In this document: one piece after another, positions 35,777-46,137 of the stretch
How positions within the stretch are numbered: position 1 is the stretch's first letter
Layout: each line of letters begins with the position of its first letter
NCBI GenBank assembly: GCA_024229515.1
Contig: JAAESI010000010.1
Span: 1 to 64,000, forward strand
Direction of reading: 5' to 3'
Source of the DNA: Pseudomonadota bacterium
Lineage (GTDB): Bacteria > Myxococcota_A > UBA796 > UBA9615
DNA: 64,000 bases
The notes under the pieces: model-generated
Seen by the model: only the letters and a program-made list of their open reading frames with translations
What the model was told of the DNA's origin: nothing
Databases searched by the model: none
Program-made: the position numbers and the translations under genes

Positions 35777-36805
35777 CTAACTGTCCTCCAGCTGCCGGCG
35801 GCGTTGCGCCAGGCGGCTCGCGATCGCGTCATGCCCGTGGTCGGCAGCGCACTGCTCCGGCAGGGTCCCCGCGGGCCTGACGTCCCCGATGCCGAGCCGC
35901 TTCGACGCGCCCGTCGCCCCCCCGGATGGCACACGCGGGTCCGCACCCGCACGCAAGAGCAGCTCGACGATGTCGCGCCGTCCCCGTTCGGCCGCCAGGA
36001 ACACGGCGGTCTCCCCGACGATGTTGCGCCGGTCCAACGCCGCGCCGCCGGCGATGAGCGCTTCCAGCACCTCGGGCTCGCTGAAGTGCGCGGCCCGCAT
36101 CAGGAGCGTCCACCCGTGGGAGTTTCGCTCGTTGGGATCGCCTCCTCGAGCCAGCGCCTCTGTGACTTCGGCCCCGGATCTCAGCAGCAGGAGCGCGCCC
36201 AACTCGGAGGGCGGCGCCATCACGTCGGGCCGAATCCAGGGCAGGTCCCAGGGGCCGTCCAGCAGCGCGGGCTCCGGGCTGCTCGGCGGCGGCGGCGGCG
36301 GCGGCTCCCACCTACCCAGGTGAATGCTCAGCCGATGACGCTGGGCGAGGGCAAAGTCCCGGGCGAGTCGGGTGTAGAAGTCCCGCATCAGGGGCGCTTC
36401 GTCGAACGTCCGACCGATGCGCGCACAGTTGGTGCGGGCACGGCCGAGGCCCTGGACGAGCTGGCCATGGAACGGACTGGACCGAAGCTCCACCGTCGAG
36501 CGCCCGCGCCCCCGCCACCCCGCGAGGTGAATCGCCTCATCGACGAATTGGAAGAAGGCGTACGGCGCCGACCCGCCGATCGCATCGTAGGCCCTCAGGA
36601 CGAGGGCGGCCGACGCTCCGTCGAGGGTCCTCTCAACGACGCCGCCCTGCACCACGAACTCGATCACGGAGCGTGACGGAAGCACCTCGACGAAGCGCCT
36701 GCTGAGTCCCAATCCGGCGAACTGGCGGAGGTACCCGAGGGCGTCGTCGTCACTCAGGCCCAGGGGTGCGACAGCGAGGAGCCCCGCTCCATAGACATCA
36801 CCCAC
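35777..36805 (-). CDS. Ankyrin-repeat protein with N-terminal unknown domain
   Basis: C-terminal ANK repeats (GWTLLMRAAHFSEPEVLEALIAGGAALDRRNIVGETAVFLAAERGRRDIVELLLRAGADP); PPPPPPP linker. Confidence 0.7.
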   Translation of the reverse strand: MGDVYGAGLLAVAPLGLSDDDALGYLRQFAGLGLSRRFVEVLPSRSVIEFVVQGGVVERTLDGASAALVLRAYDAIGGSAPYAFFQFVDEAIHLAGWRGRGRSTVELRSSPFHGQLVQGLGRARTNCARIGRTFDEAPLMRDFYTRLARDFALAQRHRLSIHLGRWEPPPPPPPSSPEPALLDGPWDLPWIRPDVMAPPSELGALLLLRSGAEVTEALARGGDPNERNSHGWTLLMRAAHFSEPEVLEALIAGGAALDRRNIVGETAVFLAAERGRRDIVELLLRAGADPRVPSGGATGASKRLGIGDVRPAGTLPEQCAADHGHDAIASRLAQRRRQLEDS

Positions 36806-36814
36806 GGCGGAGCG

Positions 36815-45200: not shown

Positions 45201-46137
45201 CGTGGTCGGCCTCGTCATCGATGTCCGACGTCATCGAGCTGAAGAAGCTCGAGAGCATGTCCGCGAAGTCGGCCAGCTCGGAGCTGCGGCCCGAGTCGCC
45301 TCCGCCGACCTTCTGCCGTTCCTTCGTCGCCGCCGTGTACCGGGTCTTGTCCGTGCTCGCGTCGGTGCCCTCGACGCCGTCGCCGATCTCCGTGTCCACG
45401 GTCGGCTTGACCAGCTTGCCGCCGCCGGCCGCCTGGGCATCGCCCGGCATCACCGCCTTGACCGTCGGCATCTTGGAGAAGGCCTTGGCCTCGTCCTTGC
45501 TCTTGCCCACCGTCAGCTTCGTGCCGAGTGTCTTGTACTCGCTGATGAACGCCGACGGCTTCTGGGCGAAGGCCGCGCTGCCGATCTGCGCCGCGGCGCT
45601 GTTCTTGGCGTCGGCTTTGCCCGGGACCTTGCCGACGACCGAGTCGACCGGCTTCTTGGGCCCGGCCCCCAGGTCGATGGGCGCGCCCTTCTCCTGCGTC
45701 GGCGCCTTCGTCTTGGCCGTCGGCTCCACCGGCGGCGGGTCGGGCGGCAGGATGGCGTCGTTGCCGCCGTCCGTGGTCTGGCCCTTGGTGCCCAGCCCCT
45801 TGGACTCCTTGGCTCCCGGCGGCGGCGCAGCGGGGGCGGCGGCCTCCCCTCCTCCACCGGCTTCGTCGAGCTGAACGACTGTGCCGGCGCTGTGTTGGGC
45901 GACTCCACCGACGTGGCCGGCGGCCTCCTTGAGCTGAACTTCGCCCTTGGCCGGCGCGGGCCGATGGGGAGCCTTGCGGCTGTCCATCGGGGCGGCCTTC
46001 GTCGTGCCGTCCATGCCCTCGTCGGGGCTCCGGAAATCCGCACGACGGTCCAAGACCTCCTGCTGTTCCTTCAGCTGGACGTCTTCGAGTGTCTGTCTAG
46101 AGCGTTCCTGCTCTGTCGTCGCGAGGCTGGCTGCCAA
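39259..46137 (-). CDS. Giant (2292 aa) Lys/Ala/Asp/Gly-rich protein with central amphipathic Gly-zipper-like module
   Basis: Single uninterrupted ORF with coding-like high-GC third positions. No signal peptide. Coiled-coil K/E-rich segment (res ~470-560). About 500 aa of 11-mer-like amphipathic G/A/K repeats (KGLANSIIDAACAFAKGVLDVLATALKGLITGLVGSI...). Unrelated C-terminal ~250 aa (…ISGTTRRWMHAGNQLGANLPGARLTMLAHLLPTNAHSFHEIM…). Confidence 0.7.
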   Translation of the reverse strand: MAASLATTEQERSRQTLEDVQLKEQQEVLDRRADFRSPDEGMDGTTKAAPMDSRKAPHRPAPAKGEVQLKEAAGHVGGVAQHSAGTVVQLDEAGGGGEAAAPAAPPPGAKESKGLGTKGQTTDGGNDAILPPDPPPVEPTAKTKAPTQEKGAPIDLGAGPKKPVDSVVGKVPGKADAKNSAAAQIGSAAFAQKPSAFISEYKTLGTKLTVGKSKDEAKAFSKMPTVKAVMPGDAQAAGGGKLVKPTVDTEIGDGVEGTDASTDKTRYTAATKERQKVGGGDSGRSSELADFADMLSSFFSSMTSDIDDEADHVDTDPGDAPPIVLEGTSDPVRAVNQDDEADAKIDSAHVEYTQAIDAGKGAQDVHRVEMEEAFEPQPLPDIAIADEGISEAMATYEGHKITAAERAGADDKMHDDVQSKLAAADGDLQATLDAQEEDRTKALDAQAKEVDRINQEAQADQEKMVGDAKKDIAAEQDKTRKKQAKEVEKARKSGDKERRAAETKVAARQKEDDRKIQTEYVQAEKKAVKEKDTAESKAEAEKKKAEEAEEDKGWWDSIKSAVSSVVDACCNLIGDIFDALGSLVAGIFDAVKGLANSIIDAACAFAKGVLDVLATALKGLITGLVGSIFPGLADELNSYIDKGLDAVKSGIDAVGDLAKKGVAAACDAANAVVQKGLSVVKTGLQTAVRVAGALATGDLEGAFMAVFYAACDIAGLSQSDARALFRDSTDLIKDIIDHPGDFIMNLIKAGIGGFKKFAAGFGGFLKSGIQKWIMGPLGGEGFKLPSVFNAMNIFKMVGTLVGVTFPWIKKIVLKTVGPGAEAVLDKVTEYVDAFMEGGIGGIWEQIQDDVGDLWSMLMGFVMDFVQSKVVTIAVEKLGSLLAGPIGALWQVLSTAWSIFQTVKEKFDSLKGIVSGIFESIGAIARGALGGAIGKIVGTLVKGLGVAIDLLARIVKVGDIPKKIKKFLTGLTSKIQGAIEKVIKKVVGKVKGLFKGGKGRDSKGKDKDKDGPKLPKATSFKTADGHDHKTWVQNKGGKLEVMVASTPTSVDDLMKKYGAELPKRPKEQQSEAKALIGKAQTLETQLGDDKPTDKADPEKMKPIQEKLARTLRACMNAMESDGGAWENIDDLLTKNKAGLDSVRSEARPLYEKALRAKDFADLKYLSAWDDLRSEAEEEAVLQAVFAKPALETHAYGAAMLPKEGAAAAKAAATAAADGDEKPADMYGKDAGGKARDAVAFAKSKKISINAGKYAGVVPAAKVDVQTDKPAPLVKKLTDGFTKAMQDGQSSTTDGKTKLEDYHTIGGHYGVSISVAKCDEPTEAQLKAAREELRTGIAKAFLGDLPGLQKKVLRDTKKLPAKYNRIRGDIWELWVLSHRGDAIGDGGKNWYEVNKSPMQMADAALVGGKLLEAKASVKGRGPSGKEAAQAELYGKHLPGEWTNGEQTQEFQKVVYQFNDGDSLAKFKEELDDAGFKKVVEWAGPDSLEGAEGDLDMTKVRKTKDQYVAFLRGKYSAEFGSLAAIAGKLKKAGGDARRIEQELDVDFAKLEKLKGEYTEAIADLDEETAKALKRKADAIEATVPHKGKAMPQLLADAQRLVGEIRTAGPFAADKKKGLESVMQSAMALSTQIDPEGSGEGRTLYNTIDKKGHPELLQQAGAAGLPKADQSKLAVDYRNWLREYFRNDVMGDRSCAEVLFLRDLGIRGSREGLSYDQVVKKVIKKLQNPKDPTKTAALRGDFTMDTATPEELDRIYDGVIGSAKTTNANVNANMMGDAKKLPQLKDGDDRLYLDGAEKPRLKKNPQPAYDVAKMSEPPPTAFDLAKKINSLSADFVESGDDKLLPKIRALMAQLMPAMQRARGDSLDPAALVEKRKVFEQVMGRNVLAHPRALQTADDMVNKAWALTASWCDPAIQKAETLDKTLFDNPAITSNEEFRKVILKTGMKLDSGFFGAVGKEFDTIKAAFKGGNLREKVQHTVNWSGIWAKKVMASSSDDIAKIIDKANELVGKVKQNAIRKDQILERQAAGQEAQAKNPDKFDAKKSLYGEGGKNTDFARVKGTDMDDKFPSVPLETLDDNQLALFGQRNGATPEWDDSRQMLVNRDELMAAIKAAQAAKTAASEGKDKKFAKMTEGRTGIGESSPHAMSPRDRSDVDLSDREAAGVGVKDDTLPFLEGMLANMLDEKNDWVAAARDLEMPLKAGISGTTRRWMHAGNQLGANLPGARLTMLAHLLPTNAHSFHEIMTAAKGIVPYKGKGSYLPLKPLSDNEVRGYAKEAGIKSTDEQNQVLGVDQGK

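Follow-up and report, generated by a model that had tools for sequence, protein, structure and literature searches.

A five-gene operon headed by a 2292-residue tape-measure-related protein with exchangeable C-terminal modules: a candidate orphan effector of a contractile injection system

Organization of the operon

We analysed a stretch of 64,000 nucleotides (hereafter the window; positions 1 to 64,000 of contig JAAESI010000010.1, assembly GCA_024229515.1, from a bacterium assigned to Myxococcota_A) and describe a five-gene operon on its minus strand. The operon is headed by a giant gene (39259..46137, minus strand) coding for a protein of 2292 aa, which is a candidate orphan, tape-measure-related polymorphic effector of a contractile injection system (CIS). 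The proteins and genomic loci used for comparison are designated by P and L numbers, respectively. The window has a G+C content of 70%, a composition at which long spurious open reading frames (ORFs) are common, and the giant gene is itself overlapped by antisense ORFs as long as 930 aa. The giant ORF is nonetheless genuine, as the initial annotation had taken it to be, because its codon-position GC (0.64/0.42/0.93) follows the pattern typical of real genes in the window, its TTG start is preceded by an AGGAG motif ~10 nt upstream and its product has 27 homologs. The protein itself was not on record in an exact-sequence look-up.

On the 3′ side of the giant gene, four co-directional and tightly packed genes code for proteins of 265, 347, 192 and 342 aa. 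These are orf265 (38443..39240), a hypervariable partner gene; orf347 (37403..38446) and orf192 (36815..37393), the immunity-like putative partners of two C-terminal modules of the giant protein, C and A; and a gene for an ankyrin-repeat (ANK) protein (35777..36805), the last of the operon, all on the minus strand. A gap of 18 nt separates the giant gene from orf265, the ATG of orf347 at 38446 lies in an ATGA overlap with the stop codon of orf265, and gaps of 9 nt precede both orf192 and the ANK gene. The layout first described, three small co-directional ORFs with short gaps or an ATGA overlap, therefore stands. The size given to the middle one does not: since alignments with homologs begin only at residue ~48, the 394-aa reading is an overextension, and the protein has 347 aa. 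A consensus scan found a terminator-like hairpin with a T-run (35727..35742, minus strand) 35 nt past the ANK stop codon, the number of such sites being not above shuffle expectation.

N-terminal region and tape-measure-like core

The first 400 residues of the giant protein (44938..46137, on the minus strand like all segments below) are rich in Gly, Ala, Lys, Pro and Asp, hydrophilic, of low complexity and disordered, as judged by composition and hydropathy. Short conserved patches were seen at aa ~190-235 and ~315-330 in an alignment with six relatives devoid of DUF4157 (alignment A7), in which no HExxH motif was found. In agreement with the earlier claim that a signal peptide is lacking, the 19-residue Kyte-Doolittle (KD19) mean peaks at only −0.87 within the first 60 aa, and no other known secretion signal was found in the protein either.

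The next segment, aa 401-555 (44473..44937), is a highly charged coiled coil, also as annotated. Heptad periodicity is significant over aa ~400-555 (z = 4.3), and Lys/Arg plus Asp/Glu make up 46% of aa 401-500. It is followed by an amphipathic helical module rich in Gly, Ala and small residues (aa 556-1000; 43138..44472), in which hydrophobicity has a period of 3.67 residues (11/3; z = 4.5, aa ~555-1000). The amphipathic 11-mer-like character proposed for this module was thus recovered as a periodicity but not as tandem repeats, self-BLAST of the giant protein giving no internal sequence repeats. Moderately hydrophobic segments are clustered in the module, of which only one reaches a KD19 of at least 1.6.

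The PHROG profile of a tail tape measure protein, phrog_58, matches aa 607-993 with an E-value of 1.2e-18, and phrog_4200 also matches the giant protein (E = 2.6e-12), the tape-measure profile matches spanning aa 409-995 overall. The description as tape-measure-like, one of several offered initially, is consequently right for aa 607-995 (E = 1e-18). Pfam, NCBIfam and PDB sequence searches with the whole protein returned nothing, nor did Pfam searches with six separate pieces at E ≤ 10.

By BLAST, distant homologs (P0004-P0027) align only to aa 313-1120 (42778..45201), which we call the family core. At the N-terminus of the distant homologs stands DUF4157 (PF13699), the extracellular CIS (eCIS) core domain, and their C-termini carry a PF13930 nuclease (Endonuclea_NS_2), a PF00648 calpain, a PF14428 DddA-like deaminase or a PF01636 APH-type kinase; the architecture DUF4157, core and PF13930 nuclease is found in P0005, P0013 and P0015. 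The genomic context was read for six homologs (P0004, P0006, P0007, P0008, P0014 and P0051). CIS marker genes lie beside three of them, two of which are inside eCIS loci: P0008 (E = 8e-71) and P0014 (E = 7e-22, from the complete genome of Lewinella sp. LCG006) are encoded between a CIS_TMP (PF19268) gene and a CIS AAA ATPase, and a homologous AAA ATPase is encoded near P0006. No CIS gene lies within 10 kb of P0004 and P0007, and P0051, a 204-aa module C protein, has the non-CIS context common to L009, L015 and L018. At the level of sequence, a core of ~800 aa, made up of the coiled coil and the tape-measure-like amphipathic helices, is shared between the giant protein and large proteins with DUF4157 and toxin domains, some of them encoded in eCIS loci. 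This link to DUF4157 proteins and eCIS effectors, which is the key to the interpretation, had been missed in the initial annotation, whose reading as a whole is partly supported.

A sub-family devoid of DUF4157 comprises the window protein, P0001-P0003, P0007 and the proteins of L015, L016 and L018. These carriers have disordered N-termini rich in Gly, Ala, Lys and Pro, and the giants of L015, L016 and L018 measure 2055-2179 aa. As a separate observation, one metagenomic contig (L006, 10001-15673 and 18188-22063) codes for two paralogs with the tape-measure-like core, 2.5 kb apart, of which P0004 has DUF4157 and the other has no Pfam domain on record.

Polymorphic C-terminal modules

An exhaustive HMMER search with aa 1100-2292 against 1.84 billion representative sequences gave 295 matches, which were complemented by local domain mapping. 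A word-indexed homology search with the same region found nothing, low-complexity words having probably swamped the candidates. The distinct C-terminal part proved to be ~1190 aa long, and not ~250 aa as proposed; it does not correspond to one toxin but to four modules, an insert followed by modules A, B and C.

The insert (aa 1112-1481, ~370 aa; 41695..42804) is an orphan that appears as a gap in the alignment to P0001-P0003. No homolog was found among the 1.84 billion representatives, and no match in PDB or Pfam. By eye only, a D...ExK-like pattern (MAD-AALVGGKLL-EAK) can be seen in it; a PD-(D/E)xK nuclease reading of this pattern would be a guess.

Module A (aa 1482-1785; 40783..41694), an effector-type domain delimited by HMMER and domain mapping (alignment A8), occurs in 25 proteins and is C-terminal in 16 of them. 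Module B (aa 1786-2125; 39763..40782; alignment A5) is helical, usually precedes module C and was mapped in 44 proteins, with a median of 183 residues after it. Module C (aa 2126-2292; 39262..39762), a terminal all-alpha domain, is the most frequent, with 137 proteins, mostly at the extreme C-terminus, and bears the near-invariant signature MPLKAGISGTT..R...AHSFHEI. The profile of module A against PDB sequences gave no relative, only coiled-coil and designed-repeat noise, and the profile of modules B and C gave the same kind of noise. Structure prediction of aa 1780-2292 with AlphaFold2 was of unusably low quality (predicted local distance difference test score of 51), and Foldseek found no PDB match to the module C model (best E-value 2.2).

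The profile of module C has a single PDB match, Mcf1 (Makes caterpillars floppy 1) of Photorhabdus luminescens (8p50/8p52), at residues 789-854 with an E-value of 0.068. In the matching region nearly all near-invariant positions of module C agree (P, G-I-S-G-T-T, H-S-F-x-E). These data lend moderate support to a weak relationship of module C with part of the Mcf1 N-terminal effector domain, as a lead and not as a membership.

Modules A and C are also found as C-terminal cargo of DUF4157 proteins, PF13699 being present in 9 of the 48 module-bearing proteins scanned. The L028 protein (824 aa) combines DUF4157 (E = 6e-30) with module C, and P0079, P0034 and P0062 combine DUF4157 with module A, showing HExxH/DUF4157 N-termini in alignment A8; the eCIS_core assignment was precomputed for P0079 and P0034. 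Annexin repeats, a eukaryote-type membrane-binding domain, were observed in 3 of 48 proteins bearing C-terminal modules (best E = 1e-45), which may indicate eukaryotic targets for some family members. A fragment of module C (P0073) comes from a metagenome-assembled genome of Myxococcales.

The initial annotation had suggested checking for the polymorphic-toxin signature, a conserved N-terminus with a variable C-terminus, and this signature was found. The closest full-length relatives, P0001-P0003 (1917-1951 aa), are 64-75% identical to the window protein over aa 1-1111 but only 35-39% over aa ~1499-2290, aa ~1112-1498 being missing from them. In the comparison of the window with L001 and L003, identity is 65-83% for the flanking radical S-adenosylmethionine (radical-SAM) genes and 64-66% for the giant's N-terminal part, and falls to 38-39% for its C-terminal part, 35-36% for orf192 and 25-27% for orf347; taken together, the downstream ORFs range from 25 to 36%. 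The converse pattern was seen with L015, where the core is 36% identical to that of the window, module C 52-60% and orf347 36%, and modules are therefore exchanged relative to the carrier. These alignments identify the C-terminal ~1190 aa as an array of exchangeable modules that is shuffled relative to the conserved N-terminal part.

Partner genes

The three small ORFs had been proposed as immunity or chaperone genes. The proposal fits orf347 and orf192, which are conserved and tied to modules. Two ORFs are private to the locus. Metagenomes were scanned with the motif of module C (alignment A6), which yielded 19 loci, or 24 together with the earlier ones. A gene of the orf347 family is located downstream, on the same strand, in all 24 module C loci, and in most cases starts between −6 and +26 nt from where the module C gene stops. 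The identities of orf347 and module C also co-vary (Spearman 0.65, p = 0.006, n = 16; uncorrected for phylogeny). This linkage holds for tape-measure-like giants (L016, L018) as well as for the small DUF4157 protein of L028. The N-terminal domain of the orf347 family is rich in Cys and His, with eight invariant residues (C5, C36, C41, C44, C61, C63, C92 and H95), and looks like a metal-binding, Zn-binding-like domain. Weak HEAT/alphaRep profile matches (E ~0.09) were obtained for the C-terminal half with the family profile (A9) against PDB sequences.

Homologs of orf192 accompany module A in the window, L001, L003 and L014, and are absent from L009 and L015, which are devoid of module A. Additionally, an orf192 homolog (27-31% identity, E-values down to 1e-22) adjoins the gene in L038 and L039, the two independent loci with DUF4157 and module A that could be read. 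On the short contig L035, a partial orf192 homolog lies 3′ of orf347, the upstream part, with any module A, being off the contig. The locus comparisons thus establish a strict linkage of orf347 to module C, and a linkage of orf192 to module A, among the sequences compared.

L035/L036 is the closest relative of the operon, with 93-94% identity in modules B/C, 87% in orf347 and 81-87% at the nucleotide level. In L035 the slot of orf265 (L035 1061-2182; window 38443-39240) holds a 373-aa homolog of only 31% identity, and the nucleotide alignment breaks exactly over this slot. orf265 can therefore be described as a hypervariable cassette, since a divergent allele lies between flanks that are 87-94% identical. 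It has no Pfam, PDB or PHROG match and is absent from L001, L003 and L014.

The last protein of the operon (342 aa) is indeed an ankyrin-repeat protein, as first annotated. An N-terminal domain and a proline-rich linker precede three ankyrin repeats (residues 212-291; Pfam Ank_2, E = 2e-12), the only Pfam match among the four downstream proteins. Its gene gave no tblastn match in any fetched locus and, like orf265, has no counterpart in L001 and L003. The ANK protein and orf265, singly or together, might by elimination be the partners of the private insert.

A conserved gene for a protein of 313-333 aa was also observed 3′ of the orf347-family gene in L009 (4919-5860), L015 (16672-17496) and L018 (11495-12496). 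Its products share 67% identity between loci and have no Pfam match; it may be a further partner gene.

Comparison with known systems

Descriptions of tape-measure-related CIS effectors appeared only in 2024-2026 and concern Actinobacteria; the definition used there rests on DUF4157 and on a position in the gene cluster of the machine. Tme (BN159_7576) of Streptomyces davawensis, a protein of 2247 aa, consists of DUF4157, a tape-measure-protein-like hydrophobic and coiled-coil region and a C-terminal EndA-like nuclease; it is loaded in the CIS and co-purifies with the CIS baseplate (PMC11126660). The giant protein resembles Tme, as far as can be judged from the published description of Tme, in its very large size (2292 vs 2247 aa), its disordered and helical nature, its coiled coil and hydrophobic helices, its remote tape-measure homology and its putative functional domain at the C-terminus, and its homologs P0005, P0013 and P0015 share the Tme architecture. 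Like Tme-like genes it is a long ORF with tape-measure homology, and it is homologous to members of CIS loci. Two of the three features that define Tme-like genes are lacking, namely an N-terminal DUF4157 and, within the 64 kb, synteny with a CIS cluster. The giant further differs from Tme in having no EndA-like nuclease, four C-terminal modules instead of one, and four partner genes.

In S. lividans, the tape-measure-related effector Sle1 has no DUF4157 and is packaged into the phage-tail-like particle with the help of an adjacent small DUF4157 protein, Sle2; Sle1-type proteins of Actinobacteria have diverse C-termini, and an immunity gene lies downstream of one of them, M. eburnea RS14790 (PMC13277306). 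Likewise, the giant protein has no DUF4157 and shows an N-terminal coiled coil, remote tape-measure homology and variable C-terminal domains. It is several-fold more modular than Sle1, and, unlike the Sle1/Sle2 pair, it has neither a DUF4157 gene nor a sheath gene beside it in the window. The eCIS-associated toxins (EATs) have their best marker in DUF4157 (PMC8213781, PMC11297309), and the tube lumen of AlgoCIS is filled by DUF4157 proteins (Cgo1/Cgo2) (PMC8894135). The giant shares with EATs modules A and C, and its hydrophilic, low-complexity N-terminus may be a further similarity. It departs from most of them in that DUF4157 is neither carried nor adjacent and no eCIS operon lies within ~10 genes in the window.

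Similarity also extends to polymorphic toxins, which, according to Zhang, Aravind and colleagues (2012, Biology Direct), reportedly combine a conserved N-terminal trafficking part with recombining C-terminal toxin modules and linked immunity genes, ankyrin-repeat proteins being said to be among the immunity types. The giant has an N-terminal part that is conserved and C-terminal modules that diverge and recombine, a linked and co-varying cognate gene among the tightly linked downstream genes, and an ankyrin protein. It differs from polymorphic toxins by the lack of a classical trafficking domain (Rhs, TPS, LXG, PAAR) and by several toxin-type modules per polypeptide with a matching set of partners, none of the modules being in Pfam.

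As for Mcf1, its 105-kDa N-terminal effector domain does not bind NAD+ and shows high toxicity in yeast, the mode of action being still unexplained (PMC10716152). The correspondence with module C covers only ~65-110 residues with marginal statistics, and Mcf1, unlike the giant protein, is an ABCD-type self-translocating toxin. We know of no partner gene adjacent to that of Mcf1. Phage tape measure proteins (phrog_58, phrog_4200) share with the giant protein the profile similarity, the coiled coil and the Gly/Ala-rich hydrophobic helices. The giant differs from them in its conserved chromosomal position and in the absence, in the window, of tail, tube or baseplate genes around it, and the ruler-like part does not make up most of its length.

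Interpretation and alternatives

Considering the shared core, the module exchange and the partner linkage, we estimate at roughly 0.6 the probability that the five-gene operon codes for an orphan, DUF4157-less CIS effector of the Tme/Sle1 type, a polymorphic multi-toxin accompanied by immunity-like genes. The disordered N-terminus, the coiled coil and the tape-measure-like part would then form a loading and translocation vehicle, extended in the lumen of the injection tube and subsequently associated with the membrane of the target, in keeping with the proposals made for Tme and Sle1. Once released there, modules A and B/C and the insert would act as toxic enzymes or as binders. In the producer, orf347, with its Zn-binding-like domain and HEAT-like repeats, would neutralise module C and orf192 module A, while orf265 and/or the ankyrin protein would serve the private insert. 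The injection machine and any DUF4157 adaptor would be encoded elsewhere in the genome.

Several points weigh against this assignment. No DUF4157 match was obtained on the whole giant protein, nor on aa 1-330 at E ≤ 10, and a DUF4157 hidden Markov model built from the homologs reached a best E-value of 0.47 in the six frames of the window, compared with 7e-28 for the positive control. Pfam revealed no sheath, tube, baseplate, spike, type VI secretion system or phage gene among ~35 annotated genes of the window, in line with the absence of phage structural, type VI and eCIS genes noted earlier. The CIS-locus proteins of L007, L008 and L010 have no tblastn match in the window, and CIS genes were not found around the DUF4157-less relatives of L015 and L018. 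No catalytic domain was recognised in any module by Pfam, NCBIfam and PDB searches. The correlation between the identities of orf347 and module C is not corrected for phylogeny, and the orf192 homologs of L038 and L039 are on the opposite strand and not downstream. Lastly, delivery of the window protein by a CIS is purely an inference, and toxicity of the modules and neutralisation by their partners are likewise inferred.

The missing DUF4157 and CIS genes, in the window as around its relatives, and the fact that the whole sub-family to which the window protein belongs is without DUF4157, would also suit a polymorphic toxin that operates without a CIS, its amphipathic module serving in self-translocation or membrane insertion after lysis or another mode of export, or in regulated cell death of the producer; Streptomyces CIS effectors of the Tme/Sle1 class also act within the producer population (PMC11126660, PMC13277306). 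We consider this unlikely, given that homology connects the core, module A and module C with DUF4157-bearing or eCIS-locus proteins, that neither a signal peptide nor another known secretion signal was seen, and that orphan effectors away from the machine are common, 12% of eCIS-associated toxins lying more than 10 genes from it (PMC11297309). Less probable still is a non-toxic structural or membrane-remodelling protein with perilipin- or apolipoprotein-like helices, the downstream genes being assembly chaperones. The 11/3 amphipathic periodicity over ~450 aa and the lack of a recognisable catalytic domain in any module would agree with such a role, as would the behaviour of Sle1, which changes the membrane subproteome rather than killing (PMC13277306). 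The conserved N-terminal and divergent C-terminal parts, the shuffling of modules, the hypervariable cassette and the strict linkage of module and partner across unrelated N-terminal contexts are, however, hallmarks of conflict systems rather than of structural proteins, and bona fide toxin domains are present in relatives.

Two further readings are essentially excluded. The PHROG matches over aa 409-995 and the rank of the gene as the largest ORF of the region might evoke a genuine tail-length tape measure protein of a prophage or injection system, but only ~400 of the 2292 residues match, no tail, sheath, tube or baseplate genes occur in the 64 kb, and a separate CIS_TMP gene is present next to homologs in eCIS loci. 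Moreover, no relatives of modules A or C were found in a scan of 2.9 million viral contigs, and four genomes share the position of the operon within a chromosomal radical-SAM cluster. This cluster, a His-Xaa-Ser (Hxs) radical-SAM peptide system, brings in the other reading, that the operon is a functional part of it. The operon is located inside the system, with HxsD, an HxsD-like protein, HxsB and HxsA4 encoded on one side and two HxsC-like radical-SAM proteins on the other, and this placement is kept in L001, L003 and L014. It is, however, on the strand opposite to the Hxs genes, and the synteny is shared only within a single, closely related lineage. The Hxs neighbourhood therefore reflects lineage synteny and is not a functional signature, since L009, L015 and L018 sit in a different context.

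The orphan CIS effector assignment can be taken further, to an effector array in which a tape-measure-derived carrier devoid of DUF4157 would deliver three or four toxin modules per polypeptide, protected by a modular immunity set, module C then being, in bacteria, an immunity-controlled counterpart of the toxic Mcf1 core. We regard this extended version as tentative and rather unlikely. In any case the locus would belong to a known kind, that of tape-measure-related CIS effectors and eCIS-associated polymorphic toxins, and would extend a recent field without being categorically new. What appears to be new is that a multi-module carrier stands as an orphan, without DUF4157, and is matched by its own set of partner genes. 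Such a carrier, existing also as an orphan gene in an ordinary chromosome, would be missed by annotation pipelines and eCIS-toxin classifiers. One carrier could hold several exchangeable cargo modules, each travelling with its own partner gene. Two uncharacterised and widespread module/partner pairs emerge from many metagenomic loci, module C with a predicted Zn-finger-HEAT protein and module A with a 192-aa family. Module C is tentatively tied to a domain of the insecticidal toxin Mcf1; if this is true, its partner would offer a handle for finding how the Mcf1 effector acts.

Genomic surroundings

According to Pfam, ~35 genes of the window include metabolic and housekeeping genes, the radical-SAM cluster, a protein with MopE repeats and a lamin-tail domain, an MMPL transporter and an IS4 transposase. 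The Hxs system as a whole occupies 46858-50417 and 32920-35757 on the plus strand, and contains HxsD (46858-47289), the HxsD-like protein (47286-47501), HxsB (47438-48967; 493 bits, above the cut-off) and the HxsA4 precursor (48993-49268), which has eight HGS repeats at its end (...HGSHGSHGSHGSHGSHGSHGSHGSHGQW) and is followed by further radical-SAM genes. In four related genomes the operon seems to divide this cluster in two. Directly upstream of HxsD, positions 46318-46845 (plus strand) code for a 175-aa protein with a twin-arginine-type N-terminus (MSSRREVLKFGAAAAAVGVAVTAAPS), which has ~51% identity to counterparts in L001 and L003 and no family match.

The operon relatives in L009, L015 and L018 are surrounded by genes for a CotH kinase, a radical-SAM protein and RecQ, without CIS genes. 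A functional link through recurrent radical-SAM neighbours was considered and rejected, the radical-SAM gene of these three loci being unrelated to those of the window. L014 and L015, the two relatives taken from a genome collection, are labelled 'uncultured Rickettsiales bacterium'; this label is doubtful at 71% G+C, and their neighbouring genes (MopE repeats, CotH, Ser/Thr kinases) look Myxococcota-type.

Near the right end of the window, an IS4-family transposase (Nterm_IS4 and DDE_Tnp_1) is encoded at 62284-63648 on the minus strand. A protein of ~1030 aa with a lamin-tail domain and MopE-type metal-binding repeats is encoded at 55162-58260, also on the minus strand, and neighbours the Hxs cluster in L001 too.

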